A DNA stretch of 64,000 nt, taken from Mustelus asterias (lineage: Eukaryota). The stretch lies in assembly GCF_964213995.1 (NCBI RefSeq), contig NC_135808.1:23002001-23066000 (forward strand). The letters are read 5' to 3'. The translations under genes were made by a program, and so were the position numbers. Positions 6,731 through 52,519 of this stretch are shown piece by piece; the first letter of the stretch is position 1, and the number at the start of each line of letters is the position of its first letter. Below the pieces are notes generated by a model, which was not told the origin of the DNA, made no database searches, and saw nothing but the letters and a program-made list of their open reading frames with translations.

Positions 6731-7695
6731 ACCCCAATTCAATTCAAACCAGCAGTTTCAAAACTTAAAGTTTCTCCCTGCCGTGTGATTTCCAGAACAC
6801 CACGAGACTTTGCTTTTCAGTTTTATTACCCAGCAATTAAAGTGAATCCAGTTCAAAACTAGCAAACAACTCTTCCTCAAGTACCATACAGGTCAGGTGA
6901 AGGCAGGCTGGCTCTCAGTCCAAGGAGTATTTATGGCCCTCTTTTGAGAAAAAAACTCCAAGTCAGTATCAACTATCCGGACAGTGCAATATGTTTCCAT
7001 GTTTTATGAAAGATATGCGTTTCCCAACACATTGAATTGTCCCAGTGTCATTCAGAAGTCCCTTATCTCCAATAATATTCCAGCAAATCTCCTCTGCACC
7101 CTCTCTAATACGTTGATATTCCTCCTAAAACAGTATGACCAGAGGTGGGGTCAATTCTCCAGCTGGGATCTAATCAATATTTTATCAATGTTCAGCGTGA
7201 CCTCCTTGCTTTTGTACTCTGTGCCTCTATTTATAAAGCAATGGGGTCCAGATGCTTCTTTCACAGTCTCATCACACCTTCCTGCCAGCCTCATACTCAC
7301 TCAGGTCTCTCTGTTCCTGCAATCCCTTTATAACTGTACCATTCAGTTTACATTACCTCTGTACATTCTTCTGTTCAAACTGCATCACTTCAAATACCTC
7401 ACTGGATTGTATTTCACCTGCCCTGTGTCTGCCCATTTCACCAACCTGTCTAATGGAACATTGATTGTGTCTGGATGGGAGACAAAGTGATGGAAGTGAA
7501 GCTTCAGTTTCACAGAGTCTTTGTTCAGAGCCTGTCTGGAGTAACTGTGTTCAGTTCTGGACACCGCACCTCAGGAAGGGGAGATTGGTCTTGGAGAGGG
7601 TTCTGATCACCAGAATAATAAAAGGAGGTTAAATGAAAGGGGTTTTTTTCCCACAGAGTTTATCTGATTGGACAGTTCTCATTGAGGCAGTTTCT

Positions 7696-7758
7696 CAACC
7701 TGTTTGTGTCTATTCTGCCGGAGACTGATGACTCACTGAATCTCTTTATTCTGATTGG
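7696..7758 (+). promoter_or_regulatory. SXY-like module of gene A (S caacct; X1/X2 gccggagactgatg-actca 7717-7735; Y ctgattgg 7751-7758)
   Basis: X1-like 14-mer followed exactly 20 bp later by an inverted CCAAT box, about 125 bp upstream of the ATG, as in MHC promoters. Confidence 0.75.
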
Positions 7759-7880
7759 TTTAAATCCTATTTTGTGTCCAATCAGATTGAGGCTCAGTGT
7801 CAACAGGGAAAGACAGAAGGAGTGAGTTGAGAAGATCACCTTTCTTTGAAAAAGAGTTTCCTCCAAATGTTTCCCCCAAC

Positions 7881-7944
7881 ATGAGGGAAGCAGCAATGAT
7901 TGGACTGATAGAGCTGGTCCTTCTGTGTGGAGAGGTGTCTGCAG
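7881..7944 (+). CDS. Gene A exon 1, leader [21 protein letters not shown]
   Basis: ATG followed by a hydrophobic stretch and a CAG|GTGAGT donor; identical in all three paralogs. Confidence 0.85.
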
Positions 7945-10900
7945 GTGAGTGATGGGGTGTGAGAGGGGCAATGCCAGGCTGGGTAATGGGGCATTAACCC
8001 TGGGTCAGTGAGTGATGGGATGTGAGAGGGGCAATGCCAGGCTGGGTACTGGGGCGTTAACCCTGGGTCAGTGAGTGATGGGGTGTGAGAGAGGCAATGC
8101 CAGGCTGGGTGGAGGTCTTGCTCTCGGTTTGGAATCAGTGTTTGGGGTTCATGCCCTGATCTCTGTGTGTGTGTGTGTGTGTGTGTGTGAGGGTGTTGGT
8201 GTTTTTAGGGTGTCTATCCTGAATTCTCTCTCTCTCTATTTCAGGCTCTCACTCTCTCCGGTATTTCTTCACGGGAATGACTCCGATCCCGGGTTTCCCG
8301 GAGTTTGTGGTTGTCGGTTCTGTGGACGGTGTCCAGTTTGTTGTGTACGACAGCGATCGGAGGGAGCTGATCCCCCGGGAGCAGTGGATGGTGGAGAGCG
8401 AGGGTCGGGCAGCCTGGGAGCGGAAGAAGATCTTCGCACAGGAGCGGGCGATGCGTTTCAAACGTGCATTTCCACTGCTCATGTCCGACACCAACCAGAC
8501 AGGAGGTGAGTGCTCACTCTCCCAGCACCAGGGGATCCAGGTGGGAATGAGGAGAAACCCAGAGTGGATCAGGAACCGAGAGCCAGAGGCTGATTGGCTG
8601 CGATTGGAGATGTGACAGGAAATGTGATTGGCTGTGAATGTGTGGAAGGATTGTTTCCAGGGAGACTGGCTCTGATTGGCTGTGTGTGAGTGGAGGAGGT
8701 GGGGGGTGGGGGGGCGAGGGGCGGGAGCAGTTGACGGTGATTGGCTGTTAGGATGAGATTGCCCAGTGAGACTGGTTCTGATTGGCTGTTTGTGTTTCTG
8801 ATCCACAGGGATCCATGTCTGCCAGATAGTGACTGGCTGTGACCTGAGCGATGATGGGACCATGAGTGGATTCAGCCAGTACGGGTGGGATGGACATGAT
8901 GTTCTCAGCTTCGACAAGGATCACATGGTGTGGGTGACCCCGGTCACATGGGGGAAGAGCATCAAAAACTGGTGCAACCGGCAGACTGGCAACATTCAGC
9001 AATGGAAACATTACCTGGAGGTGGAGTGTATCGAGTGGCTGAGAAAATACCTGGAGTATGGACAGAGAGAATTGAGAGTCTGTGAGTGAGGGGGGAGTGA
9101 GAGTCGGTGAGTGAGGGGGGAGTGAGAGTCGGTGAGTGAGGGGGGGAGTGAGAGTCGGTGAGTGAGGGGGGAGTGAGTCGGTGAGTGAGGGGGGAGTGAG
9201 TGAGAGGGGAGTGAGAGTCGGTGAGTGAGGGGGGAGTGAGAGTCGGTGAGTGAGGGGGGGAGCGAGTGTGGGGAGAGCGAGTGTGGGGGGGGGTGAGTGT
9301 GAGCGAGGGTGGGGGGAGCGAGTGTGGGTGAGGGTGGGGGGAGCGAGTGTGGGCGAGTGTGGGGGGAGCGGGTGTGGGCGAGGGTGGCGGGCGGGTGTGG
9401 GCAAGGGTGGGGGAAGCGGGTGGGGGCGAGGGTGGGGGGGCGAGGGTGGGGGGAGCGAGAGTCGGTGAGTGAGGGGGGATTGAGAGTCGGTGAGTGAGGG
9501 GGGAGTGAGAGTCGGTGAGTGAGGGGGGAGTGAGAGTCGGTGAGTGAGGGGGGAGTGAGAGTTGGTGAAGGGGGTGATGCCGGGACTCTTATCTCGAGGT
9601 TCCTGTACTGACTCCTCTTTCTTTCTCTCTCAGTTGGCCCCGTCGTGTCCTTTACCCGTCTGGGTGATTCTAACCGGCTGTCCTGTGCCGTCACCGGGTT
9701 TTACCCTCAACCCATCGAGGTGAATCTGTGGAGAAACAGAGTGGTGATTGATGAGACTCTGTCCAGTGGGATCTTACCCAATCACGACAGCACCTACCAG
9801 ATCCGGAAATGGGTAGAGTTTGATCCAGAGGACCAGGCCGAATATTCCTGTCGGGTGGAACACAGCGGGATGAAGGAGACACTGGTGGTGATTTACGGTA
9901 AGACTGTTTCTCACTGTTAGAGAGGACCCAGCCTCAGACCAGGATCACAGGAGTGAGGGTCAGTGCTGAGCTGTCAACCCAGGATATCGAGAGAGGGAAA
10001 TAAATATTATTCAATGCGTTATATATCATGGTTCCACAGTGCAACATGATACAGCGGATCATTGGATATTGGGATCGCACTGGGCCTGGTGTAACATTGG
10101 ACACGAGTGTCGGTCTGGGCCTGGGGTATTCTGGGATATTGCAGTATAGTGGGGCCCAGTGAATCCTGGGATATTGCAGTAGTTCAGAACATGGTGTATC
10201 CTGAGATACTCTCGTAGGACACATCCCAGTGTATCCTGGGATATTGCAGCCTGTCAGGGCCTGGTGAATCCTGGGATATTACAGGAGGTTGGGCACCGTG
10301 GAATATCAGAGGATGGAGAGAGCCTGGTGTTTCCAAGAAACAATGCTTTTCACTGTGTCCCAATACATGTGACAATAATAAATCATATCAAATATTACAG
10401 TAGGACAGGACCCAGTGCATCCTGGAAGTTTACTTCAGTCAGATTAAGATCAGTATTCAGAGAAATAATGGAATTCCTTCTATTGGAGACAATTCATGAA
10501 AATCTAGAATCAAATACTATAACAATGAATATTCAGCATGGATTTTGAAATGGAAAATCTTGTTTTACTCCACTTAGTGAATTTTTTGAGGATGTAACAG
10601 AGGGAATAGACAATGGAAATGTAATAGATATAATATCATATAATTTTTTTAATGTAATAGAAAAGGGGGTTCGTGATGGACTGATTGACAAGGTGAAAGC
10701 ATGTGGAGTTAGGGGATGAGTGACAGAATGGATCACTCACTGACTTTGGGAGAGAAAGCAGAGAGTGTGAGTAAAGGGTGTTTCAGAGTTACAGAAAGTG
10801 TTCCACAAGGATCAGTGCTGGGATCACCGCTGTTCACAAGTTACACTCCATAACTTGGATATTGGAATCAAAAATACCATTTCTTAATTTGCAGATAACA

Positions 10901-13010
10901 CCAAATTGGGGGAATTATTTGATATTGAGGAGAAGTGTATTAAATTAATAGGACATGAATAAACTTGAACAAATAGTTGGTGAATAAAGTTCAGCACAGA
11001 TAAACGTGAAGTATTTTTCAGTTAATGATGAATAGGGAGGGTTGAGGAACAAAGGGATCTTGATGTACAAATACACCAATCAGTAAACATAGAGTTACAG
11101 GTTAGACAATAAACAAAATACAATCGAAAACCAGGGTTGATTTCTCGAGGGATAGAATTGTAAAGTAGGGATTTTATTGCTAAACCTGCATCAAACCTTG
11201 GTTAGACCACATTTAAAGACCGAGTGCAGTTCCGGTCACCATTTCATACAAAGGATATAGAGTCAGGGGAGAGAGTGTCGAGAAGATTTACAGAGATGAT
11301 TCCAGAAATGAGTGGGTGGACATCTCAGGAAAGGATTGACCGGCTGGGTCTCTGCTCTCGGGAAAACAGAAGGCTGAGGGTTGATTTAATCGAGGATTTA
11401 AAATTAGGGAAGTTTTTTTTATAGAGCGGACACATCGAGAGTGTTCCTCTTGTGGGAAGAGCATATCCAGTGGCCATCAATACAAGAAACCCAATGGGGA
11501 ATTCATGAGAAACCTCTTCACCCAAAGAGTGATGAGAATGTGGAGCTCGCTGCTACAGGGAGTGGCTGAACTGAACAGTATAGTTTAAGGGGAGGATAGA
11601 CAAGCAAATGAGGGAGAGGGGAATAGAGTTAAAATGGTCGAATTAGATGAGGAATAATGGGAGGAGCCTCAGGTGGAACATTAACACCAGCATCAATAGA
11701 TGGGCTGAAAGGCCATTTTCTATGTTGTATATCCTGTGTTTCCTGATTCACTCTCTCTCTGATTCACTCCCACATTTCTCTTTCTTTCTCTCTGATTCAC
11801 TCTCTGATTCTGTCTCTCTGATCTTTCTCTGTCTCTCATTCTCTCTCTTCCTCACTCTTAGTTGCTCATCCTCTCTCTCATTCTCTCCCACTCGCTCACA
11901 TTCTATTTCACTCTGATTCTCACTTTTCCCTCTCCCTGATTCACTCAGTCTCTCTGATTCTCTCTCTCTAACAGAACCAAAGTCTCGCTCCCAGGTTGCT
12001 GTTACTGTCGGGATTGTGGTCGGGGTCCTCGTGCTCATCGCTCTCATCATTGTGGCTGTCGTCATCTACAACAAGAAAGGTAGGAATTGGAGGGAAAAGA
12101 GCGGTGGGTGAACTGTAGTGGATCCAGGCAGTCCGGGAGGCTGGAATTGATTCGTGCCATGACTAGCCTTTCGAATCATTTCATAATGATGGATGTCAGA
12201 GCCACCGGATGACAGCTCACTGGGGGCAGGGATTCTGGGAGAGTATTCCAGGGTGGCGGTGGCTCAGGCTGTGGGTCTCAGGTTGGTGTGGGGGTGGGGA
12301 GGGGGTGGGTGGGCGGGTGGAAGAGTTGCAGGGTTGGGATAGGGACAGTAAGGGGCTCATGATAAAGGGGGAGTGTCTGAGAATTGTGGGAAGGGCCACA
12401 AATTGGATGAGGACTTCAGCGTATCAGTGAGGGCTCAGGTAACAGTGAGGGTCTAGGGACAGGAACCGGAGTGTGGGTCCAGGGTCAGCGTGTGAGTGAG
12501 GGTCCAGGGTCAGGGTGGGAGTGAGGGTCTCTGGTTGTGGTGGGAGTGAGGGTTCAGAGTTGTGTTGTAGGGGCTCAGTGCGAGTGAGAGTTCCAGCCTC
12601 TGTCTCTGATTTTCTCTCAGTCTCGTCTCTCACTGAGCATTCCATGTTTTACAGGGAGAGGGAAGAGCAACTACAATCCTGCAAATAGTAAGCTGATCAT
12701 CAAACATTGTCCCTGTGCAACTGTGTACATGATTGTTCATTCTGTTTCAAATATAGTGTGTGCGTGTGCGTGTGCGTGCATCGTGCGTTTCTGTGTGGGT
12801 GTGTGGGCTTCTGTGTGTCGCCGTTAGTATGGGTGTGTGAGAACCTCTTTCTCTGTGTCTGTCTGTCTATGTCTCTCTCATTCTCTCATTATCATATCCA
12901 CAGTCTCTGCCTCTGTCTCTCTGATGTTGAACAATGTTTTAACACCTCTTCTTCCTTTAACAGCTTCTGATGATGGGGATTCCTCATCCAGATCCTCCAC
13001 AAGTACCTGA
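7881..13010 (+). CDS. Non-classical MHC class I heavy chain gene A, intact; exons 7881-7944, 8245-8505, 8809-9081, 9634-9897, 11975-12079, 12655-12687, 12964-13010 (1047 nt, 348 aa; alternative in-frame ATG at 7896)
   Basis: All introns are GT-AG and phase 1. The spliced ORF gives leader, alpha1 GSHSLRYF...NQTG, alpha2 with C101/C164, Ig-C1 alpha3 ([10 protein letters not shown]...YSCRVEHS), TM and a tail with YNPA. Loss of Y59, R84, T143, K146 and W147 equivalents indicates non-classical. Confidence 0.93.
7945..8110. repeat. 63-bp tandem repeat starting at the intron-1 donor (also 25838-26000 and 44737-44830)
   Basis: gtgagtgatggg recurs at 7945, 8008 and 8071. Confidence 0.9.
8245..8505 (+). 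CDS. Gene A exon 2, MHC class I alpha1
   Basis: 261 nt, GSHSLRYFFTG...VDGVQFVVYDSD...NQTG; polypyrimidine acceptor. Confidence 0.95.
8809..9081 (+). CDS. Gene A exon 3, MHC class I alpha2
   Basis: 273 nt, HVCQIVTGCD...GWDGHD...ECIEWLRKYLEYG. Confidence 0.95.
9082..9570. repeat. About 25-bp G-rich minisatellite, gene A intron 3
   Basis: gtgagtgaggggggagtgagagtcg units. Confidence 0.95.
9634..9897 (+). CDS. Gene A exon 4, alpha3 Ig C1 domain
   Basis: 264 nt, C1-set motifs [13 protein letters not shown] and YSCRVEH. Confidence 0.95.
10470..11740 (+). mobile_element. Old degenerate CR1 in intron 4 (homologous at about 34320-35300)
   Basis: PQGSVLG and FADNTK remnants, LVRPH-like segment. Confidence 0.75.
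11975..12079 (+). CDS. Gene A exon 5, connecting peptide and transmembrane
   Basis: EPKSRSQVAVTVGIVVGVLVLIALIIVAVVIYNKK; AG/GT bounded, 105 nt. Confidence 0.92.
12655..12687 (+). CDS. Gene A exon 6, cytoplasmic (GRGKSNYNPAN)
   Basis: 33-nt phase-1 exon with a class I-type YxxA motif; conserved in gene B. Confidence 0.85.
12964..13010 (+). CDS. Gene A exon 7, Ser-rich cytoplasmic end and stop
   Basis: TSDDGDSSSRSSTST-stop; paralogous exon at 36921-36967. Confidence 0.8.
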
Positions 13011-13805
13011 GGTATGAACTGTGTTGATAAATATTGGGAGCTGATCCTTCTAACTGGGATATTCCCGCTGGATTTAGCTGTACAATCTGGTGGGTGGGCT
13101 GTGAGCTCAGTGTCTGTCTCTCACTCTATAGTCACTAAAGAGCAGCTCATCCAATCCAACACTGAGCTTTGAGACTGGCCTTCTGGAGACGGCTGTTCCT
13201 GTACAGTCTGAGGGTGGAGACATTGTGTGTTTTAACCTGTAGAGACATCCGGAAACATCTCACCCTGGACAGCCTCCTCTGAGCTGCTCAATTTCCTGAA
13301 GGAATTTGTAACTCCCAGACTTTTCCCTGAAGTTGGTCACTGAGCTGTGCCGCTCCCACAGGTTTTTATTTTAGTCGTGTTTTGTGATTTGTCTGATCAT
13401 TAGCTGGATGTTTGGGGTGTACAGTAGAGTTTAGGAGTTAAGCTGGTGATTGGTGGTCTGATGGGTTTAGCTGGTGTTTGGTGCTCTATTGGGTTTAGCT
13501 GGTGTTTGCGGCTCTGATGAGTTTAACTGATGTTAAGGAGTCTGATGGGTTTAGCTGGTGTTTGGGGATCTGATGGGTTTAGCTGGTGTTTGGGGGTCTG
13601 ATGGGTTTAACTGATGTTAAGGAGTCTGATGGGTTTAGCTGGTGTTTGGGGATCTGATGGGTTTAGCTGGTGTTTGGGGGTCTGATGGGTTTAACTGATG
13701 TTAAGGAGTCTGATGGGTTTTGCTGGTGTTTGGGTATCTGATGGGTTTTGCTGGTGTTTGGGGATCTGATGGGTTTTGCTGGTGTTTGGGGGTCTGATGG
13801 GTTTT

Positions 13806-24910: not shown

Positions 24911-25520
24911 ATCCCAACCAACTCAATCTCTCCTTATTTCCTATCTTTGTAGCTGCTCCAAATTTAGATCCATCACATTCTGTCTCTTCATCTGAGTCAC
25001 ACATAAAGATTGTAAATGACTGATTTTCCCAGCACTGATCTCGTGACACTCCACTCGTCACAGTCGGCCAACTTGTAAATGCCCCATTTATGCCAAATCA
25101 ATGTTTCCTGTCCATGAGCCAATCCTCTATTAATGCAAATACATTGCCCTCAACTCCTGGTCTTGGAGGGGGTGCAGTTCTGATCACCAGAATAATAAAA
25201 GGAGGTTAAATAAAAGGGGTTTTTATTCCCCAGCTTTTAGAATGTTGATGGGTGATCTGATCGATCTGTTTATAATGTTAAAATAATTCAGCAGTGTGGA
25301 ATCCACATCCAGTCTCTCCACAATAAAAAGTTAACAATTGGAGCTTTTCAATCTCAGAGTGACAGATTTTTATTGGGTAATGATATCTGAGGATATGGTT
25401 TATAGTCAGAAACTGGGGTCCAGATCTGCAGTGATTTCACTGAATGGTTCGCTCAGACCTGCTGCTGTTCTTAATGTCCTTCCCTCTGTCACTGGATCAA
25501 ACTCCTTTCAGCTGATTCTA

Positions 25521-25652
25521 CCCGGCAACTGATGATGTCAGCAGCTGTATTTACCTGATTGGACAGTTCTCAACATTGAGGCACTCTCTCACCCTGTTTG
25601 TGTCTATTCCGCCGGAGACTGATGACTCACTGAATCTCTTTATTCTGATTGG
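25521..25652 (+). promoter_or_regulatory. Two tandem X-Y modules of gene B (X 25521-25534 / Y 25555-25562; X 25611-25624 / Y 25645-25652)
   Basis: cccggcaactgatg-atgtca and gccggagactgatg-actca, each 20 bp before ctgattgg. Confidence 0.75.
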
Positions 25653-26136
25653 TTCAGTCCTATTTTGTGTCCAATCAGATTGAGGCTCAGTGTAAACAGG
25701 GAAAGGCAGAAGGAGTGAGTTGAGCAAATGGCCTTTCTTTGAAAAAGAGTTTCCTCCAAATGTTTCCCCCAACATGAGGGAAGCAGCAATGATTGGACTG
25801 ATAGAGCTGGTCCTTCTGTGTGGAGAGGTGTCTGCAGGTGAGTGATGGGGTGTGAGAGGGGCAATGCCAGGCTGGGTACTGGGGCATTAACCCTGGGTCA
25901 GTGAGTGATGGGGTGTGAGAGGGGCAATGCCAGGCTGGGTACTGGGACATTAACCCTGGGTCAGTGAGTGATGGGGTTTCAAAGGGGCAATGCCAGGCTG
26001 TGTGGAGGCCTTGCTCTCGGTTTGGAATCAGTGTTTTGGGGTTCATGCCCTGATCTCTGTGTGTGTGTGTGTGTGTGTGTGAGTGTGTTGGTGTTTTTCG
26101 GGTGTCTATCCTGAATTCTCTCTCTCTCTATTTCAG

Positions 26137-26397
26137 GCTCTCACTCTCTCCGGTATTTCCTCACGGGAATGACTCCGATCCCGGGTTTCCCGGAGTTTGT
26201 GGCTGTCGGTTATGTGGACGGTGTCCAGTTTGTTGTGTACGTCAGCGATCGGAGGGAGCTGATCCCCCGGGAGCAGTGGATGGTGGAGAGCGAGGGGCTC
26301 GAGTCCTGGGAACAGAAGAAGAAGCTCACACAGGAAGGGGAGCGATGTCTCAAAGATAATATTCAGACCCTCATGTATCGAACCAACCAGTCGGGAG
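26137..26397 (+). CDS. Gene B alpha1 exon (open)
   Basis: GSHSLRYFLTG...LMYRTNQSG, 261 nt. Confidence 0.9.
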
Positions 26398-26730
26398 GTG
26401 AGTCTTCAAACTCCCAGCACTCAGCCTCTTTCTCAGGATGCAGGGCGTATGGGTCAGAGTGGGAGAAACTGGGAGCGGATCAGGATCTGGGACTGGGGGC
26501 TGAGGTTGTGCATGAGCTCTGTCAGGTCTGTTGGTCAATTGAATCTGATTGTGTGTGTTTGGTGGTTTTCCCTCTAGTTGGATTGGGCCGGATTGGCTGT
26601 GTGTGTGTGTGTGTGTGTGTGTGTGGTGGCTGGACCTCCAGTGGGAACGGATCTGTTTGGGTGGGTTCATGGTGAGTGCAGCTTTTATTGGGACTGGCCC
26701 TGATTGGCAGGTTATCTTTCTAATCCACAG

Positions 26731-27003
26731 GGATCCACATACACCAGCTGATGACTGGCTGTGACCTGAGTGATGATGGGAATACGACTGGATTCAACCA
26801 GTATGGGTGGGACGGACTAGATTTCATCAGTTTTGATAAGGATCTTCTGGTGTGGGTGACCCCCGTCCCTTGGGGAGAGATCATCAAACAAAAGTGGGAG
26901 GGCAGCACGGGCATTAACCAGCGATGGAAACGTTACCTGGAGGTGGAGTGTATCGAGTGGCTGAGGAAATATCTGGAGTACGGACAAAAATTACTGAGAG
27001 TCG
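26731..27003 (+). CDS. Gene B alpha2 exon (open)
   Basis: IHIHQLMTGCD...IKQKWEG...RYLEVECIEWLRKYLEYG, 273 nt. Confidence 0.9.
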
Positions 27004-27740
27004 GTGAGTGAGGGCGGGAGTGAGAGTCGGTGAGTGAGGGGGGAGTGAGAGTCGGTGAGTGAGGGGGGAGTGAGAGTCGGTGAGTGAGAGTCGGTGAGTG
27101 AGGGGGAAGTGAGAGTGAGGGAGGAGTGAGAGCCAGTGAGTGAGGGGGGAGTGAGAGTCGGTGAGTGAGGGGGGAGTGAGAGTCGGTGAGTGAGGGGGGA
27201 CTGAGAGTCGGTGAGTGAGGGGGGACTGAGAGTCGGTGAGTGAGGGGGGACTGAGAGTCGGTGAGTGAGGGAGGAGTGAGAGTCGGTGAGTGAGGGGGGA
27301 GTGAGAGTCGGTGAGTGAGGGGGGAGTGAGAGACGGTGAGTGAGGGGGGAGTGAGAGACGGTGAGTGAGGGGGGAGTGAGAGTCGGTGAGTGAGGAGGGG
27401 AGTGAGAGTCGGTGAGTGAGGGGGGGAGTGAGAGTCGGTGAGTGAGGGGAGTGAGAATCAGTGAGTGGTGGGGAGTGAGAGTCGGTGAGTGAGGGGGGAG
27501 TGAGAGTCGGTGAGTGAGGGGGGAGTGAGAGTCGGTGAGTGAGGAGGGAGTGAGAGTCGGTGAGTGAGGAGGGAGTGAGAGTCGGTGAGTAAGGGGGGAG
27601 TGAGAGTCGGTGAGTGAGGGGGGAGTGAGAGACGGTGAGTGAGGGGGGAGTGAGAGTCGGTGAGTGAGGGGGGAGTGAGAGTCGGTGAGTGAGGGGGGAG
27701 TGAGAGTCGGTGAGTGAGGGGGGAGTGAGAGTCGGTGAAG
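27004..27740. repeat. 25-bp G-rich minisatellite, gene B intron 3 (about 29 units)
   Basis: Same unit as in gene A. Confidence 0.95.
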
Positions 27741-27804
27741 GGGGTGATGCCGGGACTCTCTATCTCGAGGTTCCTGTACTGACTCCTCTTTCTTTCTCTC
27801 TCAG

Positions 27805-28067
27805 TTGCCCCCGTCGTGTCCTTTACCCGTCTGGGTGATTCTAACCGGCTGTCCTGTGCCGTCACTGGGTTTTACCCTCAAGCCATCGAGGTGAATCTGT
27901 GGAGAGATGGAGTGATGATTGCTGAGACTCTGTTTAGTGGGATCTTACCCAATGAAGACAGCACCTCCAGATCTGAAAATGGATCGAGTTTGATCCAGAG
28001 GACCAGGCCGAGTATTCCTGTCGGGTGGAACACAGCGGGATGAAGGAGACACTGGTGGTGATTTACG
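27805..28067 (+). pseudogene. Gene B alpha3 exon, frameshifted
   Basis: ACCT-CCAGATCTGA here versus ACCTACCAGATCCGG in gene A. Confidence 0.9.
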
Positions 28068-28164
28068 GTAAGACTGTTTCTCACTGTTAGAGAGGACCCA
28101 GCCTCAGACCAGGATCACAGGAGTGAGGGTCAGTGCTGAGCTGTCAGCTGAGGACAGGGCTGTG

Positions 28165-28480
28165 AGGCCCAGTGATTAGCGCTGCTGCCTCACAGCGCCA
28201 GGGATCCGGGTTCAATTCCAGCCCCGGGTCGCTGTGTATGTGGAGTTTGCACATTCTCCCCGTGCCTGCATGGGTTTCCTCTCGGTTCTCCGGTTCCTCT
28301 CGCAGTCCAAAGATGTGCAGGTTCGGTAGAGTGGCCATGCTAAATTGCCTGTTAGTGTCAGGGGGATTAGCAGGGTAAACACATGGGTCACGTGGATAGA
28401 GCCTGGGTGGGATTGTTGTTGGTGCAGGCTCGATGGGCTGAATGGCATCTTTCTTTCTGTACTGAATGGATTCTATATTT
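28165..28480 (+). mobile_element. tRNA-derived SINE
   Basis: gcgctgctgcctcacagcgccagggatccgggttcaattcc. Confidence 0.8.
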
Positions 28481-28700
28481 CTCTGATTCTCTGACAGCCT
28501 GAGGCCCAGGATACAGAGCGAGGGAAAGATATATTAATCTTCAATACATTATATACCATGGTGCTACCATTCGGGGACAGGAATTGGGATTACTGGGATT
28601 TTACTGTGCCACAGGCCCCATTGTCTCCTGAGATATTATCGTACGAATGGGCCCAGTTTATCCTGGGATATTACAATATGGCAGGACCCAGTGAATCCTG

Positions 28701-31700
28701 TGTTACAGGCGGTGGGGGGTTGTCAGTATAAACTGCCCTGATTTCCCCCCTCACGACTCGTCCACTAACAGTAAGTTTTTAAAAAAATTCTGAGCTCCCT
28801 CTTTATAAATGGTGGCATCTTTTCCCCAACCCATAAATTTGGAGTGTTCCTATTCTCTGTGAATAACTTGCACAGTAAACCTGAGGTAAGATGAAAATAC
28901 ACACATGAGAAAAGTTTCACAACATTGACCCCTCTGCACTCACACAGTGAACGGGGGATAAGGAGAAGGAAGAGGGTTCAGGGCCCGATCACAATAAAAA
29001 AAATGCGAGGGTTTTACATGTGTCCAGAATGAGCAGTCTAATGGAAGGTTTCTTTCAAGGGGAGGTTGATGGATTATAGGGTGGTCCACCTGCAGTGACT
29101 TTAACAAGGCCCACGATGTGGACCTCTTAGAATACTCGCTCCCAAATTAAGCCAGTAATGGATTGTCCAATCAGGGAGCCCTGTATGTGTACATAATGTG
29201 GAGTGTCAGCGTTACTCGCACTCTGGGTTTAAAGTTTGAAGTTTATTTATTAGTGTTACAAGGAGGCTTACATTAACACTGCAATGAAGTTACTGTGAAA
29301 ATCTCCTGGTCACCACATTCCGGCACCTGTTCGGGTATCCTGAGGGAGAATTTAGCATTACTAATGCACCTAACCAGCACAACCTTTGGACTGTGGGAGG
29401 AAACCCACACAGACACGGGGAGAATGTGCAAACTCCACACAGACAGTGACCCAAGCGGTAATTGAACCCAGGTCCCTGGTGCTGTTAGGCAGCAGTGCTA
29501 ACCACTGTGCCACCAGTATGAGGAAGTACCTGTCTGAGAGTTGCTTACTTTGTTGCTTACTCTTGCCTTTGACAAGGTACTGCATGGTAGGTTATTGCTT
29601 AAGGTTAAATCTCACGGGATCTGGGGTGAGGTATCTAAATGGATACAAAATTGGCTTCTTGACAGAAGCCAGAGTGTGGTTGTAGAGAATTGTTTTTCAA
29701 ACTGGAGGCCTGTGACCAGCGGTGTGCCTCAGGGATCAGTGCTGTGTCCACTGTTATTTGTCACTTATATTAATGATTTGGATGAGAATAGAGGAGGCAT
29801 GGTTAGTGAGTTTGCAGATGACATGAAGATTGGTGGCATAGTGGACAGTGAAGAAAGTTATCTCCAATTGCAACGGGATCTTGATCAATTGGGCCAGTGG
29901 GCTGACGAATGGCAGATGGAGTTTAATTTAGACAAATGCAAGGTGATGCATTTTGGTAGATTGAACCAGGGCAGGACTTACTCAGTTAATGGTAGGGCAT
30001 TGGGGAGAGTTACAGAATAAAGAGATCTCGGGGTACATGTTCATAGCTCCTTGAAAGTGGAGTCACAGGTGGACAGAGTGGTGAAGGAGGCATTCGGCAT
30101 GCTTGGTTTCATCGGTCAGAACATTGAATACAGGAGTTGGAATGTCTTGTTGAAGTTGTACAAGACATTGGTAAGGCCACACTTGGAATACTGTCTGCAA
30201 TTCTGGTCACCCTATTATAGAAAGGATATTATTAAATTAGAAAGCGTGCAGAAAAGATTTACTAGGATGCTACTGGAACTTGATGGATTGAGTTATAAGG
30301 AGAGTTTGGATAGACTGGGATTTTTTTCTCTGGAGCGTCGGAGGCTGAGGGGTGATCTTATAGAGGTCTATAAAATAATGAGGGGCACAGATCAGCTCGA
30401 TAGTCAATACCTTTTCCCAGAGGTCGGGGAGTCTAAAACTAGAGGGCATAGGTTTAAGGTGAGAGGGGAGAGATACAAAAGTGTCCAGAGAGGCAATTTT
30501 TTCTCACAGAGGGTGGTGAGTGTCTGGAACAAGCTGCCAGAGGTAGTATAGAGGCGGGTACAATTTTGTCTTTTAAAAAGCATTCAGATAGTTCCATAGG
30601 TACGATGGGTATAGAGGGATATGGGCCAAATGCGGGCAATTGGGATTAGCTTCGGGGTTTAAAAAAAAAAATGGGCGGCATGGACAAGTTGGGCCGAAGG
30701 GCCTGTTTCCATGCTGTAAAGCTCTATGACTCTATGACGCTATGTTAATGAATCTAAATTTGGTGAAGGGACACCAACCTTGTGGGAGTTATTTCAGAGA
30801 CGAACATGATGGAACTTGTAAAATTTGGCCTAAGTTGGGGTCAGCCATTTTTCTGCATCATTCCTTTGTTTGGTAGACGAGACTCGTTCAACCCTGCTGT
30901 CGAGAACTGGGCCCAAGGTGTGGATCACATGCATTATTTTTTCGGGCAAATGACATTATGGCAGATGAAAAACAAAGGGTGCTGTGAATGCTGTGGTGCT
31001 TGAGCGTTTGCTGTCATTCGGAGTTAAACTTTCCCTGAGGCCCCAGATACTAAAACCTTTCAAGAATTGCCTGAGGTCGTTGGAGAATGCTACAACCCCA
31101 AGCCACCTCTAATTTTGAAACAGTATTGTTTATACTAAACAATCTGTTATGGGATTCGTAACTAGGTTAAGACAACTGGCGAAAGCATGTGAATTTATTT
31201 TAACTCTTAACAAGATGCTTAGAGACTGTCTGGTGTGCGGTATTAATAATGTGACTGTTCAAAAATGCCTATTAGCTGAAGCACAAGTGGACTTCAAACA
31301 GGTGCTACAGCAGGTTTTACCATTGGAAAATGCTGCATGTGGAGCATATGAGTTGCAAGCCATCCCGAAGTGGACACCCGCGCCAGTCCGACTGAGTTCA
31401 GGGACCACTATTTGAGAGCAGGCAATTACATAGCCTCCCTCAGGAAGTATCCAGATACACATAACTCCAGGTCTGCACAAAGCAAAGCCAAACTGCGACC
31501 AAACAGTCACAAGTCCTACCTGATAGCAACAGCAAAGGAGTCCTACAGGACTGAGATTTAGTAAAGCAACTTGTAGTCCGGTATCCAGGAGTGTTCACAC
31601 CCTGGGAAGATCCACCTACATCTGATTTAGTGCAATTAAATTGCATATCGATGTCCAAATCAGATCAAATCAAGATTAACGTATGGTTAAGTGGACATCT

Positions 31701-33660
31701 GGTACTAATGGAAGTTGATATCGATGCGGCAGTATCAGTGTTCAGAGAATCAGCGTTCCATAAAATTCACTATGGACTCTAGCGCTTATTGTTACTGAAG
31801 ACCTCAGCAAGATAGGGAACCTGTATCGGGGAACCTTTCTGAATTTTGAGTGGAACCCCTGACCCTGTCTCCTATGAAAGGCAGCTGGTTCAGTTACCAA
31901 TGATTGTAGTGAGGGCATGGGGAAGCCTAATGGTGTGAAATTGGTTGCAAGAGATCCACCTTGGCTCAACATCTTCAGCCAGAGAATGGCTGCCTTAGTG
32001 AAGTCCTGCCGAAGTACGCTAAAGCTTTCCAGGAAGGTCTTGGGACTATCAAAGGAGCCAAGGCGACCTTACCTGTTGACGAGGAAGTGATTCCACAATT
32101 TTGCAAGGCCCGCCCAGCGCCATTTGACTTACGAGTAAAAGTTGAAGCAGAAATCCAAAGACTGGAACATGAAGGGATCATCAAACCAGTCCAATTTGTG
32201 GAATGGGCAGCACCAGTCTTACCAATTTTGAAGCCAGGTGGATCATTCCATCTTTGCGGGGATCCGAAACAAACGGGAAACTGTTTCTTGCAGCTGGTTG
32301 GAAGGATGACTCTTGTTTGTGAAACTTGACATGAATCACGCTTACTTACAATTACAACTAGATGACGATTCCCAGAGATATTCAGCAATTCATACTCAGA
32401 AGGGCCCTGAGCGATCCACTTGTCTGCCATTTGGGGTATAGTCACCCTGTTCAACCTTCCAGCGAACGATGGAGAACATTTTGCAAAGCCTCCCTCAGGT
32501 TGCTATATATCTGGATGAAGTCCTCTTAACTGGTAAAAAAAAAGAAACACTTAAAGAACCTTGAGGAAGTTCTCAGTCAATTTTTCAAGGCAGGTGTACG
32601 CCTACGAAGGGAAAAAATGTGTAATCCAGGTTCCCCCAAGAGAAAGCTCCATCTCAATAGCAAAGGTACAAAGAAGAAAGAAGTTCCAGGCAGAAGAATC
32701 AACAGAGAAAGCCCAAATATTCCGGAAGACACAAAAACTTTGTTAATAAGTGGGAATTGTATTCACCTGAACAGCATTCCATTTGAATCATTTTATTCAG
32801 GTTGTTAATAGTTTAGTTAACTTGTTCACTGTTAATTCGATAAATAAGTTGTTCCTTGTTGATTTTTGAGAGTGTCAGGGAGTTATTTTGATTGAACCAG
32901 TAAAAGTTGCTGAAGAGCAGATTGTACCACTTCACACTCACTTTTACAGATTATGGCGAGTTGCTCCTCTTTGAGTGGTGAGGCCTTAGTTCTCAGAGGG
33001 GGGATCAACCTCGGCTTCATAACAATAACCTATTTGGGAAATTAAGCCCATTCGTGCCTCCATCCTGGCTCCATTACACCAACTACTAAAAAAAGATCAG
33101 CCTTGAGAGTCGTCTTCCAGTCAATCCTTGGCTTTCAATAAAGTAAAGCAACAACTTTCCTCTTTTAATGTACTGGCGCATTATGATCCCAGGAAAGAAC
33201 TATTACTGACCTGCGACACATCCTTGTATGGCTTCATGACGGCTTTGGCACATAGGTGGCCAAACAGAGTGGAATTGCTTATGCTCCCAGGACCTTGACT
33301 ATTGCAAAAAAGCCTATGTCGAAAAAGAAGGGTTGGCGGTGATATTAGGAGTGAAAAGGTTCCACCAGCGCCATTATGGGTAGAAATTTGTCATTAAGAC
33401 ACAGACCACAAGCCACTCCTCGGACTGTTTAAAGAGGACAAGGCAGTGTTGCCCATAACATCAGCCCAATCCAGCAGTGGGCTTTATTACTGACCGCCTA
33501 CAATTACCAATTGGAACACTGTCCAGGAGGCCTTGAGCTGACTATCATTAGCAGATATCCGATCGGTGGTATCCCCAGTGGAAGAGTCTGTAATGACAAT
33601 GATTTTTTTTGGAGACTTTCCCAGTGCCACTAAATAAGATTTGACCGTGGACTTAAAAAG
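28701..33660 (+). mobile_element. Decayed Gypsy-type LTR retrotransposon in gene B intron 4, with nested SINE, CR1 and LTR fragment
   Basis: gag-like LRQLAKACEF...LRDCLVCGIN, protease-like MEVDIDAAVSV, RT EWAAPVLPILKP...LCGD and IYLDEV, RNase H remnants. Confidence 0.75.
29560..30740 (+). mobile_element. CR1-type LINE 3' fragment
   Basis: AFDKV, SGVPQGSVL, FADD motifs and (ctatga)n tail. Confidence 0.92.
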
Positions 33661-35454
33661 GCCCAGTCTTTGCTAAATTTAAAACATTCATTTGTGGGAC
33701 ATGGATGTTGCTGACTGGCCAGCATTTATTGCCCACCCCTAGTTGTCCTTGTCCGGAGGGCATTTGAGAGTCAACCACATTGCTGTGGATCTGAAGTGAC
33801 AAGTAGGCCAGACCAGGTAAGGACGGCAGATTTTTTTCCCTAAAGGACATTATTCAACCCAGATGATTTTTTTTTTGACAATTGACAGTGATAGTGCCGG
33901 GGATTGTCAGAGGATACAACAGGATATCGATAGGTAGATTGGAGACTTGGGCACAAAAATGGGAGATGGAGTTTAATCTGGATTGATGTGAGGTGATGCA
34001 TTTTGGAGGTTCAAATGTAGGTGTGAATTATACGTAAATAGCAGAACTCTTAGGTACATTAACATACAGAGGGATCTGGGTGTGCAGGTCCACAGTTACC
34101 TAAAAGTGGCAACACAAGTGGCCAAGGTGATTAAGAAATCATTTGGCATGCTTGCCTTTATCAGCTGGGGCATTGAGTCCAAGAGTTGGGAAATCATGTT
34201 GCAGCCATATAAAACCTTGATTAGGCCGTATTTGGAGTATTTTGTGCTGTTCTGGACACCACCCTATCGGAAGCACGTAGAAGCTTTGGAGAGAGTGCAA
34301 GGAAGGTTCACCAGGAGTGACAGAAGGTGGGAAATGGTGTTCCGCAGTAATCAATGCTGGAATCACCGCTGTTCACACTTTACACTCACTTATTTGGACA
34401 TTGGAATCGAAACACAATTTCTCAATTTGCTAAGGTCACCAAATTGGGACGAATTATTCGATATGCTACAAAATAATAGAACATTAATAAACTTGTAGAA
34501 TGGGCAAATAATTGGTGAATGGAGTTCAGCACAGATAAACATGAGGTAGTTTTCTATTAGGGGTGAATAGAGAGGTCACTTATTACTTAGGAGGTGCCGG
34601 GCTGGATGGGGTTGAGGAACAAAGGGATTTCGGTTTACGTTAAACCAATCCGCAACAGGTTAGGCAAAGCCATGAACAAAATAAATGGAAAATCAGTCTT
34701 TATTTCTAGAGGGATAGAATTGTAAAGCACGGAAGTTATTGCTAAACTGTTATCAAATCATGATTAGACCACATTTACAGACTGTGTGCAGTTCCAGTCA
34801 CCATTTTACAGAAGGGTTTTTACTCACAGGAGAGGACATAGAGAAGATTTACAGAGATGATTCAAGGAATGAGTGGGTGGACATCTCAGTGAAGGATTGA
34901 CTGGCTGGGTCTCTGCTCTCAGGAAAACAGAGGGCTGAGGGTTGACCTAATCGAAGATTTAAAATTAGGAAAGGTTTTCATAGACTGGACACAGAAAGAG
35001 TATTTCCTCTTGTGGGAAGAATGTAACTCGGGGTCATCAATACAAGATGGTCACCAAGAAACACAATAGGGAATTCAAGAGAAACTTATTCACTCAAAGA
35101 GTGATGTGAATGTGGAGCTCGCTGCCACAGGGAGTGCTTGAAGTGAACAGTATAGTTTAAGGGGAATGAATGAGGAGGAAATATGTAGTTAAGATGGTCA
35201 GTTTCGATGAGGGAAGATGGGAGGAGGATCAAATGGAGCATAAACACCAGCATCAACTAGATGGGCCAAATGGCCAGGTTCTGAGTCAGGTATTCTATGT
35301 TTTCTGATTGTCTCTCTCGCTCTCTAATTCACTCTCTCTCCATCATTCTCAGGTTCTCTCTCCTCTCTTCCTCTCACATTCTCTCTCTCTCTCTGATTCT
35401 CACTTTTCCCTCTCCCTGATTCACTCAGTCTCTCTGATTCTCTCTCTCTAACAG

Positions 35455-35559
35455 AACCAAAGTCTCGCTCCCAGGTTGCTGTTACTGTCGGGATTGTGGT
35501 CGGGGTCCTCATGCTCATCGCTCTCATCATTATGGCTGTCGTCATCTACAACAAGAAAG
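35455..35559 (+). CDS. Gene B transmembrane exon
   Basis: Near-identical to 11975-12079. Confidence 0.85.
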
Positions 35560-36280
35560 GTAGGAATTGGAGGGAAAAGAGCAGCTCCTTACTGGGGGGA
35601 GGGATTGTGGGAGAGTATTCCAGGGTGGGGGGGCTCAGGCTGTGGGTCTCAGGTTGGTGTGGGGGTCACAGAGTGGATGGAAGAGCCCAGGGTTGGGATA
35701 GGGAGGATAAGGGGCTCATGATAAAAGGGAAGAGTCTGAGAATTGTGGGAAGGGTCTCAGATTGAATGACGAGTTTAGGGTATCAGTGAGGGTCCCGGGT
35801 CAGTGCGGGAGTGAGGGTCTTCAGTCAGTGTGGGAGTGAGGGTCTTCAGTCAGTGCGAGAGTGAGGGTCCCCGGTCAGAGGGGAGTGAGGGTCCTGGGTC
35901 AGAGGGGGGAGTGAGGGTCCTAGGTCAGAGGCGGAGTGAGGGTCCCGGTGAAAGAGGGGGAAGTGAGGGTCCCAGGTCAGAAGAGGAATGAGGGTCCCGG
36001 GTCACAGGGGGAGTGAGGGTCCCGGTTCACTGTGGGAGTGAGGGTCCTGGTCAGGGTGAGAGTGAGGATTTCAGAATTGTGTTGTCGGGGCTCAGTACGA
36101 GCGAGAGTTCCAGCCTCTGTCTCTGATTTTCTCTCAGTCTCGTCACTCACTGAGCATTCCATGTTTTACAGGGAGAGGGAAGAGTGACTACAATCCTGCA
36201 AATAGTAAGCTGATCATCAAATATCGTCTCTGCGTAACTGTGTGAATCACCATTGATTCTGTGTCATATAGTGTGTGTGT

Positions 36281-36617
36281 NNNNNNNNNNNNNNNNNNNN
36301 NNNNNNNNNNNNNNNNNNNNNNNNNNNNNNNNNNNNNNNNNNNNNNNNNNNNNNNNNNNNNNNNNNNNNNNNNNNNNNNNNNNNNNNNNNNNNNNNNNNN
36401 NNNNNNNNNNNNNNNNNNNNNNNNNNNNNNNNNNNNNNNNNNNNNNNNNNNNNNNNNNNNNNNNNNNNNNNNNNNNNNNNNNNNNNNNNNNNNNNNNNNN
36501 NNNNNNNNNNNNNNNNNNNNNNNNNNNNNNNNNNNNNNNNNNNNNNNNNNNNNNNNNNNNNNNNNNNNNNNNNNNNNNNNNNNNNNNNNNNNNNNNNNNN
36601 NNNNNNNNNNNNNNNNN
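36281..36617. other. Assembly gap (N run) in gene B intron 6
   Basis: Run of n. Confidence 1.
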
Positions 36618-37384
36618 CCTCTCGGCCTCTCTCTCTCGCTCTCAGTCTGTCTGTATGACTCTTTCTCTGTATCTACCCGAACAGGCAGCTCGGGGATTTT
36701 CACAGTAATTTAATTGCAATGTTAATGTAAGCCTACTTGTGACACCAATAAATTAACTTATAATTATAAATTGCTTTCTCTTTCTCTCTTTTTCTCTCTC
36801 ACTCTTTCTCTCACTCTCCTTTCTCTCACTCTCTCTCTCCATCTTTATCTCTCCATATCTCATGCACTGATTCTGTCTGATGACAAACAGTATTTTTAAT
36901 GCCTCTCCTTCCTTTGACAGCTTCTGATAAAGGGGATTCCACAACCAGCTCCTCCACAGGTTCCTGAGATATGAATTCTGTTGATAAATATTGGGAGCTG
37001 ATCCTTCTACCTGGGATATTCCCGCTGGATTTAGCTGTACAATCTGGTGGGTGGGCTGTGAGCTCAGTGTCTGTCTCTCGCTGTATCGTCACTAAAGAGC
37101 AGCTCATCCAATCCAACACTGAGCTTTGAGACTGGCCTTCTGGAGACGGCTGCTTCTGTACAGTCTGAGGGTGGAGACATTGTGGGTGTTGAGGTGTCGA
37201 GACACCCGGAAACATCTCACCCTGGACAGCCTCCGCTAAGCTGCTCAATTTCCTTAGGAAGTCGGAATTCCCAAGAGTTTTCCCTGAAGTTGGTCACTGA
37301 GCTGTGTCACTCCCACAGGATTTAACATTTAACGTTTTGTGATGGGTTTGATCGTTTTCTGGATGTTTGGGAAGCGGAGTGAAT

Positions 37385-44163: not shown

Positions 44164-44580
44164 CCCGGCAACTGATGATGTTAGAATCATAGAATGAGCC
44201 CATTCAAGTCAGCACCAAATCTCAGACAGAGCATCTTTACCCAGGCCCCATCCCTGTTACCCTACATATTTACCATGGCTAATCCCCTATCACACACATC
44301 TTTAGACAGTAAGGGGCAATTTAGCTTGGCCTGTCCATCTAACCTGCACATCTTTGGCGTGCAGGAGGAAGCAGGAGTACCAGGAGGATACCCACACAGG
44401 GAGAATGTACAAACTCCACACAGACAGTCACCCAAGGCTGAAATTGACCCTGGGTCCCTGGCGCTGTGAGGCAGCAGTGCTAACCACTGAGCAAACATAA
44501 TATAACCAGTTGTATTTACCTGATTGGAGAATTCTGAATATTGAGGAAGTTTGCCAACCTGTTTTGTGTCTAATCAGATT
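44164..44580 (+). promoter_or_regulatory. Disrupted promoter modules of gene C
   Basis: Distal X (44164-44177) is separated from Y (44520-44527) by a SINE; the proximal X-Y is deleted at about 44565. Confidence 0.65.
44184..44498 (-). mobile_element. tRNA-derived SINE inserted in the gene C promoter
   Basis: Reverse of cagtggttagcactgctgcctcacagcgccagggaccc; absent at the homologous gene B site. Confidence 0.85.
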
Positions 44581-50600: not shown

Positions 50601-52478
50601 CCTTGATGCCACACTTGGCCGAATGTGGCCTTGATATCAAGGGCTGTCACTTTCACCTCACCTCTGGAATTCAGCTATTTTGTCCATGTTTGAACCAAGG
50701 CTGTAATGAGGTCAGGAGCTGAGTGACCCTGGTGAAACCCAAACTGGGCGTCACTGAGCAGGTTATCATTAAGCAGGTGCTGCTTGATAGTACCCGTGGA
50801 GAATTATATGACAAGAACGTTGGATCGAAGGAAATCTCACAGAGTGTTTCCTGAGAATATACTCAAGCAATATTTTGATCGGGAAGGAAAGCAGAAGGGG
50901 GATGCATTAGTTATGACAATGCAGAGTGAAGAAATAAGTCCAGATGATTCTGCATTTGACATTCTTCAAATTAAATTGGATAATGTGGAAGTAATCGGAA
51001 ATTGAAATAAACGATTGAGTTACCTTCTGGAGGAAAATCAAAATGGCCTGAAAGAGTTACTACAACCACATGGAGAGATATGTGGGAATAAACTGGGAAG
51101 GACTAAAATAATTATGCACAACGTAGATGTAAGAAATGCTGTTCCAATTAAGCAATATCTGTACAAGCTTAACCCTCCAAAGTTGGCATAGGTTCAAAAG
51201 GAGATTGAAAGCATATTTAAAAATTACATAATTGAAGTGAGTTGGAGAGAGTGCAGCTCACCCGTAGTGAGGGTTCCAAAATGAGATGACACCCAACAAT
51301 TCTGTGTGGACTATAGGAAAGTTAATGCAGTTACAAAATAAGATTCATATCCCATTCCTTTCTTGGGAGACTGCATTCAGAAGGTGGGACAAGTGACTTT
51401 TATTTCCAAACTTGACTTACTAAAAGGATACTGGCGGGTACCTTTATCCGAAAGGGCAAAGGAGATTTTGGCTTTCATGACAAAAAATGGTCAGTACCAG
51501 TTTAAAATCATGCCATTTGAAATGAAAAATGCACGAGCCACATTTCAAACATTAACTAATAAGGTCATTTCTGGACTACCTAATTGTGCTGTGTACATAA
51601 ACAAACTGGTGGTTTTCAGACAGATGTGGAAGGAACATTTGGAGCACCGAGCGGAATTGTTCAATTGGCTTCAGGATGCAGGCTTGGTGGTAAACTTGGC
51701 TAAGAACGAGTTTACAAAAACCAAAGTCACATTCATAGTCCATACAATTAGACATGGATGGAAGGCCCTACGGTCGGTGAAAACAAAGGTTATTGGGGAG
51801 TGCCCAATACTGCCGGTGAAAAGTGAAGTACTGCATTCTTGGACCTGGATGGTTTTTATAGGAATTTTGTGCCAAACATTTGCATTATGGTTGCTGCACT
51901 GACTGACTTGCTGAAAAAACATGCAAAATTTCAGTGGACGGTGAATGTCAGAGGGCATTTGGCCGCCTGAATAATGTGTTAACCACTGCACCTGTGTTGG
52001 CAAGAACAAATTATGCAAAACCATTCAAGATGGCCATTGATGCGAGTGATGTGGCTGTTCTATTACAAGAAGATGACAAAAGGATATAAAGACCAATTGG
52101 GTACTTTTTTCTGGAAAACGAAATAACCATCAAAAGAGATTCAACCATTGAGAAAAGAAACATTGAGTTTGGTGTTGGCATTGCAACATTTTAACGTTTA
52201 TGTTGTCAGCAATTCATCTGAGACAGTTATTTACACTGATCATAATCCATTGACGTCTCTGGAGAAATTTAGAGATCAAAGTGAAAGGCTCTTTAGATGG
52301 AGTTTATTATTACAGCCATTTTATATGAGAATTACAATGTGGCAGAAAGTGAGAATGTGATTGCTGATGCTTCATCAACAATTTCATGAAAGAGGAAGGA
52401 ATATTCAATGTCGGAAGAGAATGACTGTACTGGACAATAGAACTATTATACTTGCATGCATTGATTTACTAGAATGTG

Positions 52479-52519
<41 letters not shown>

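Follow-up and report, generated by a model that had tools for sequence, protein, structure and literature searches.

In promoters of the SXY type, RFX binds the X1 box, CREB/ATF or AP-1 binds X2 and NF-Y binds Y, and this assembly serves as the docking platform for NLRC5 or CIITA. CAACCT is the NLRC5-type S consensus, and the human class I promoter layout includes a downstream CCAAT box. According to the accessible part of Ludigs et al. 2015 (PMC4374748), the distance to X is within 16 bp for S and 20-22 bp for Y, and NLRC5 activation is decided by the S box; as parsed in the present analysis, the H2-K primer given in that part has TAACCT 16 bp before X and Y 20 bp after it. The accessible portions of PMC7573153 and PMC6523485 cite SXY motifs for the class I promoters of teleosts. 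PMC10751288 (section 9) describes shark UBA as a class Ib cluster of multiple copies that lies outside the class Ia region, with c4 and rxrb at its flanks, and the derivation of UBA from UAA is stated in PMC12562908; within the accessible text of these two sources, the word 'promoter' has 0 occurrences in the former, and the latter is likewise silent on promoters. There is no mention of sharks in PMC12436146. Among the papers that our literature search covered, which included part of the shark literature, none concerns a shark or tandem class I SXY.

The window analyzed here, that is, the whole stretch of 64,000 nt, contains three MHC class I genes, denoted A, B and C, with the same 21-residue leader in all three. 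The first-pass annotation of this DNA assigned the promoter motifs of these genes to the SXY type, and this assignment holds: the X-Y modules show the mammalian spacing, and every promoter element listed there for A, B and C was located where it had been placed. The third, forward CCAAT box, the S boxes and the frameshift of B are absent from that annotation and were added in the present analysis. Exons encoding the RFXAP domain are present in the genome.

The class I genes of the window and their cluster

The window corresponds to positions 23.00-23.07 Mb of contig C8 and lies within a cluster of 49 closely related alpha3 exons (21.6-24.7 Mb), near-identical block duplicates included, apart from the proteasome exons and UAA-type genes (41.3-42.4 Mb). 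The cluster comprises about 50 copies of non-classical class I genes of the UBA type. The alpha2 exon of gene A is 100% identical to P0003, a class I chain of Mustelus asterias by its NCBI name, and shares 70% identity with horn shark O19480_HETFR, which we take to be a UBA entry. From this sequence affinity to horn shark class Ib and the multicopy cluster away from class Ia, genes A, B and C appear best filed as UBA. Classical class Ia (UAA) has all eight of the residues that we assume to anchor the peptide; with positions placed via alignment to the shark structure 6LUP, A retains 3/8, B 6/8 and C 0/8, and no gene of the cluster has 8/8.

The NCBI model P0001, in which a B-clade alpha2 exon is fused to the exons of a neighboring gene, may represent read-through or an annotation artefact. 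Intron 2 contains 3-7 GATTGG boxes in each of A, B and C (window 8590-8790, 26580-26710 and 53740-53970), and such boxes are also found in UAA-type intron 2.

Gene B had been considered the most classical member; its functional status is contradicted by the exon 4 frameshift, which ends the frame inside alpha3. This deletion is also found in four other B-clade copies, at exon position 163 in three and 164 in one. Exon 4 could be skipped in frame (264 nt), in which case B would encode an alpha3-less protein. Identity reaches 99-100% between several blocks, and there are gaps in the contig, but it is highly improbable that the copy numbers or the frameshift of B are assembly artefacts: the exon 4 deletion is shared with a diverged paralog carrying further lesions of its own, the promoter variants recur in independent DNA runs, and the conclusions on motifs are independent of copy number.

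The TM exon of gene C (L129:3100-3240) has a GC donor, and read-through would reach a stop that adds 9 residues. The 17 kb past this exon yielded no tail exons 6-7; similarly, the C-clade genes (L129, L131, L132) have the TM exon, with no tail exons 6-7 found in the DNA examined. Among four frames of the retroelement in intron 1 of C scanned against Pfam, three had no match.

Promoter modules and their lesions in genes A, B and C

Gene B carries two tandem X boxes, each followed by CTGATTGG at 20 bp, as the first-pass annotation had described, and the coordinates were verified (Table 1). The two modules are 90 bp apart, with X boxes of 14 bp. By itself, CTGATTGG is frequent, with 17 occurrences in the window, several of them within intron 2. 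A matrix scan of the window yielded three modules, all in the A and B promoters, compared with none in five shuffles; the matrix was partly built from these same A and B sites, and the shuffle control is lenient. The description of both B modules as intact does not extend to their S boxes: neither has an S box of the NLRC5 type at about 16 bp before X, the distal AAACTC and the proximal CACCCT falling short of the S box defined in PMC4374748 (accessible part). Because B has no good S box and A has CAACCT, the module count of B, A and C by this standard is closer to 0-1-0. No ISRE-like site was found in the scanned promoter stretches of B and C. An ISRE-like CTTCAGTTTCAC is located at window positions 7501-7513, about 190 bp upstream of the S box of A; this sequence is absent from B and may be due to chance.

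Table 1. Coordinates of promoter elements, exons and repeats of genes A, B and C within the window
Feature	Position	Strand	Remark
A deletion junction and orphan distal Y (7664-7671)	7653..7671	+	same deletion in 12 other paralogs
A proximal module, intact	7696..7785	+	X-Y span 7717-7758
A proximal S CAACCT	7696-7701	+	15 bp before X
A proximal X	7717-7730	+	20 bp before Y
A proximal Y	7751-7758	+	
A forward CCAAT box	7778-7785	+	
Gene A, complete UBA-type class I gene	7881..13012	+	
B distal S position, degenerate AAACTC	25499..25504	+	16 bp before X; TAACCT in UAA-type L091
B distal X1 box CCCGGCAACTGATG	25521..25534	+	followed by CRE-like X2 TGATGTCA, 25533-25540
B distal Y box CTGATTGG	25555..25562	+	20 bp past distal X
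B proximal S, variant CACCCT	25590..25595	+	15 bp before proximal X
B proximal X1 box GCCGGAGACTGATG	25611..25624	+	followed by AP-1-like X2 TGACTCA, 25623-25629
B proximal Y box CTGATTGG	25645..25652	+	20 bp past proximal X
B third, forward CCAAT box CCAATCAG	25671..25678	+	18 bp past proximal Y; 19 bp in UAA-type promoters
Gene B, UBA-type class I	25774..36968	+	alpha3 frameshifted
B leader	25774-25837	+	
B alpha1	26137-26397	+	
B alpha2	26731-27003	+	
B alpha3, frameshifted	27805-28067	+	
B exon 4 1-nt deletion	27965..27970	+	exon position 163; frame ends inside alpha3 exon
B TM	35456-35560	+	
B tail exons	36172-36207 and from 36920	+	
C distal X box, uncoupled from Y	44164..44177	+	
SINE-type repeat in C distal X-Y spacer	44185..44506	-	322 bp
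C promoter remnant	44520..44577	+	orphan Y, orphan S, junction; CCAAT box changed to CTAAT
C orphan distal Y	44520-44527	+	
C orphan S CAACCT	44555-44560	+	
C proximal deletion junction	44561-44570	+	
Gene C	44673..59951	+	leader, alpha1-alpha3 all in frame; TM exon beyond window (L129)
C leader	44673-44736	+	
Old decayed LTR retroelement, C intron 1	45283..53304	+	terminal repeats 73-82% alike
Reverse-transcriptase fragment in this retroelement	51342-51899		
C alpha1	53402-53662	+	
C alpha2	54027-54299	+	
C alpha3	59688-59951	+	

Compared with B, gene A shows a net deletion of about 313 bp that includes the distal X (B 25231-25554 replaced by 11 nt), in agreement with the loss of roughly 320 bp, the orphan Y and the retained proximal module reported previously. 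The S box of this module is CAACCT, yet located 15 rather than 16 bp before X.

In gene C, the distal X and Y are 342 bp apart, compared with the 20-22 bp of known modules, with the 322-bp SINE-type insert between them, as annotated earlier. The insert, presumably a member of the shark SINE family HE1, has 10 other partial copies within the window. The proximal module of C is gone, also in line with the earlier description of a deletion between short direct repeats: a net 66 bp is missing between the TTTGTGTC repeats (B 25597 and 25664). A clean crossover between these repeats would delete 67 bp, and C carries one extra T. The insert in C has the same site, strand and ends as that in two subgroups with A-like grooves, which group with A in the exon 2-3 tree; thus, the histories of promoter and groove differ. 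A new X box supplied by the SINE was considered and rejected, given that the matrix scan scored no module in C. In several paralogs (C8 21.77, 22.84, 23.24, 23.67 and 23.74 Mb), the site equivalent to B 25599-25609 carries an insertion, 188 to ~1150 bp long and accompanied by an 11-bp duplication, which uncouples the proximal S from X; most of these genes are in frame.

RNA-like contigs of related species start downstream of the boxes, at 25684 (run X1), 25689 and 25741 (X4) and 25708 (X8), mostly 6-63 bp past the last box; contigs cannot show transcription start, and in run X8, low-depth contigs also extend across the promoter. Runs X10, X12 and X13 were rejected as expression evidence for A, B and C because introns are covered, that is, these runs behave like DNA.

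UAA-type promoters and the age of the doubling

Two UAA-type promoters are doubled as well, with modules 105 bp apart in L089 (41.60 Mb) and 103 bp apart in L091 (43.33 Mb). Both consist of two X-20-Y modules, CCAATCAG 19 bp past the second Y and then a class I leader, so that the X-Y spacing of 20 bp is found in both modules of B, the proximal module of A and both modules of L089 and L091. The S boxes of L091, TAACCT and CAACCT, each lie 16 bp before X, the NLRC5-type position, and those of L089 read TAACCT and CAACTT. An ISRE-like TTTCAGTTTC is located upstream of the L091 modules. In UBA promoters, the distal S position reads AAACTC or similar, and the proximal S is 15 bp from X.

The X-Y spacers of UBA and UAA promoters match by position, with 11/20 identical letters distal to distal (21/35 including the S-X spacer) and 15/20 proximal to proximal (14 for L089), compared with 4-6/20 crosswise; against a background of 0.3, the binomial p values are 2e-4 and 4e-5. 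The proximal S-X spacer does not match (2/15). A recent duplication specific to B was rejected: the two B units share 4/20 spacer letters, and each matches its UAA-type counterpart instead. Given the doubled L089 and L091 promoters and the position-matched spacers, the doubling likely predates the UAA/UBA split. Comparison with the family promoters bears out the lesions described in the first-pass annotation as real, but the deletion in A and the SINE in C are not gene-specific, and the doubling is, judging from these alignments, likely ancestral and not special to B. A similar picture could arise without common ancestry if UAA and UBA promoters had exchanged sequence. Contigs of run X8, from another species, contain both modules in UBA-type promoters.

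L089 encodes 8/8 anchor residues and is located between proteasome-subunit exons (41.28-41.68 Mb); its exon 2 is out of frame, and L089 is not proven to be an intact gene. Its sister gene L090 has the alpha2 closest to 6LUP. The L091 promoter is separated from any exon 2 by an assembly gap, and its joining to the L090 exons, both facing 200-N gaps in a manner compatible with a flipped contig, was set aside as unproven. The alpha1 of L090 (C8 42.40 Mb) is mosaic, the first two thirds matching a broken gene at 43.41 Mb (L093/L094) and the end matching L089. Another class I gene, L085/L086 (C8 27.97 Mb), has near-classical alpha1 and alpha2, with no alpha3 match found nearby.

The strict X-N19-21-Y pattern has 24 matches in 3.68 Gb, all 24 on the MHC-bearing contig C8, and its reversed control has none. 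These matches include 14 UBA distal modules, 4 modules in the two UAA-type promoters, 2 before class II beta-type leaders and 4 unassigned single modules (41.08, 41.48, 42.26 and 42.41 Mb). A looser X-Y pattern yields 91 matches vs 24 in the control. The X-Y modules are not chance occurrences. No modules were found in the stretches of UDA/UEA-type genes (L087, L088, L119-L124), where leaders were not located.

Further single CAACCT-16-X-20/22-Y modules are present on C8 (41.1-43.4 Mb) and contig C523 (L097:2191-2254, L098:2116-2179, L099, L100, L114, L117 and L118). Some are repeated, with no identified leader adjoining, and are possible enhancers or promoters of antigen-processing genes. The class II beta-type promoters (L095:2374-2780, L096:2526-2930) contain one X-Y module, then about ten GATTGG/ATTGG boxes and then the leader.

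Module number, groove and comparison with known promoters

For the family-wide analysis, we used 49 genes with a leader; 1 of 50 exon-2 copies was dropped, with no leader in the examined DNA, as were, before counting, two promoter-only copies and one promoter-plus-exon-4 copy. Reading frame status was judged on exons 2-4 only. Two modules are present in 17 genes, one in 24 and none in 8, and exons 2-4 are open in 7/17, 21/24 and 7/8 of these, respectively. The highest anchor score of the cluster (7/8) is found among the open two-module genes. The proximal module is intact in 40/49 genes, the distal one in 18/49. Among the genes with the exact 90-bp layout of B, 9/10 are broken in exons 2-4. 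All 10 broken two-module genes belong to the B clade of 12, and therefore represent one lineage rather than ten events.

The first-pass annotation proposed that two, one and no modules in B, A and C parallel the distance from a classical groove. The rank order stands (6, 3 and 0 of 8 anchors), and the family trend has the same sign: rho between module count and anchor residues is 0.70 over the 49 genes, 0.69 over the 35 in-frame genes and 0.68 over the seven deep clades of the exon 2-3 tree (one-sided p 0.052). The coupling of regulatory and ligand divergence drawn from this order fares less well. The genes are block duplicates and hence non-independent, the clade trend is borderline and drops to rho 0.47 (p 0.17) without the C clade, and the second groove measure, identity to UAA-type L089, gives 0.47 at the clade level (p 0.14). 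The lesions are common to paralogs of other groove types, the A-type promoter deletion being found on grooves scoring 2, 2, 3, 5 and 6 of 8 anchors, the last of these being the score of B, and B itself is frameshifted and lacks a good S box. We therefore consider it unlikely that UBA paralogs tune module number with groove, such that NLRC5 control stays strongest with the most classical grooves and is abandoned by the most remodelled ones. The C clade agrees best with such tuning, combining zero modules and 0-1/8 anchors with open exons 2-4 in 5/5 genes, an alpha3 dN/dS of 0.21-0.39 and an alpha1 replacement excess; in addition, in the RNA-like run X1, from a relative, a C-clade-like exon 2 piece appears as a loose end (compared by eye), and SXY loss is reported for opossum non-classical class I genes (PMC1351924, accessible part). 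Thus, the B promoter is a real tandem double form of a known promoter type, and the 2-1-0 coupling is weak, except possibly in the C clade.

In our preferred interpretation, B is probably a pseudogene relic of an ancestral double promoter, with piecemeal decay in UBA and a loose promoter-groove trend for which coupled selection is unneeded. The layout of B, with two tandem X-20 bp-Y modules and a CCAAT box, was likely inherited from an ancestral shark class I gene, and we predict binding of RFX, CREB/AP-1 and NF-Y to its modules, as for the mammalian ones. The UAA-type promoter, with NLRC5-type S at 16 bp in both modules and an upstream ISRE-like site, would provide a double enhanceosome platform. 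The UBA cluster would have inherited the double promoter with a degenerate distal S and without the ISRE-like site, so that its distal module is likely dispensable. The proximal module and the CCAAT box would form the core promoter element, to which the proportion of intact copies and, as a weak hint, the starts of the RNA-like contigs point; the distal module would be a booster that works in UAA-type promoters and is dispensable in UBA.

Alternatively, in every shark class I gene the proximal module alone might work, with the distal X-Y as an old duplicate kept by slow sequence change in sharks rather than by function. This would fit the loss or breakage of the distal module in 31/49 UBA genes through several separate lesions, as well as the class I gene at 27.98 Mb, where the proximal module has a 21-bp spacer and the distal spacer is shortened to 14 bp. 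It is a doubtful explanation, given that UBA and UAA still share the distal X and Y at precisely 20 bp, whereas their flanks can no longer be aligned, and that TAACCT at 16 bp is kept in both UAA-type promoters.

Under the preferred scenario of piecemeal decay, birth-and-death duplication, repeat insertions, deletions and inter-copy exchange would have generated the UBA promoter variants, with the A deletion and the C SINE as older events common to other paralogs and B as, most likely, a pseudogene in which the ancestral layout is not yet lost. Promoter and groove would both drift from the UAA state, which accounts for a loose trend with no need for coupled selection. The C clade would then be the sole case where both modules are lost and the groove is wholly remodelled in genes still in frame. 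As a more tentative extension, which we regard as possible rather than probable, the ancestral promoter of sharks, perhaps of jawed vertebrates, consisted of an ISRE, two complete S-X-Y modules of the NLRC5 type about 100 bp apart and a CCAAT box, in this order, and formed a double enhanceosome; mammals keep one module, the UBA losses lower expression, and the C clade is functional outside NLRC5 control.

By these comparisons, a shark possesses the NLRC5-type S-16-X-20-Y grammar exact to the letter. The point of interest is the tandem double SXY in class I promoters, which was not met in our literature search. The UBA cluster amounts to a naturally occurring deletion series, with two modules, one or none, S box present or absent and altered spacing, in which the role of each part is directly testable in reporters.

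Like the elasmobranch UBA class Ib lineage, the genes of the window belong to a multicopy non-classical cluster outside the class Ia region, with anchor residues partly lost. As in opossum non-classical class I genes, modules are missing and S boxes weak in non-classical paralogs; the accessible part of that report (PMC1351924) mentions no doubled module. Compared with the CIITA-dependent class II SXY of H2-Eb, in the accessible part of its source, the distal X of B is alike in 11/14 letters (H2-Eb X parsed from primers) and the Y box CTGATTGG is identical, whereas the GGACCT of the H2-Eb S box was not seen in the present promoters; both class II beta-type promoters that were checked in the shark (L095, L096) carry a single X-Y module. 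The NLRC5-type module of H2-K, as far as given in the accessible part of its source, shares the S6-16-X14-20-Y8 register, and its TAACCT is also found in the shark UAA-type distal module. In mammalian class I promoters and in the shark UAA-type promoter, an ISRE-like site lies upstream and a CCAAT box downstream. Unlike in mammalian class I promoters, the shark X and Y boxes resemble mammalian class II boxes and the UBA proximal S-X distance is 15 bp; and whereas mammalian class I genes have one module each (PMC4374748, accessible part), those of the shark carry a tandem pair in the class I promoter, spaced by 82-105 bp.
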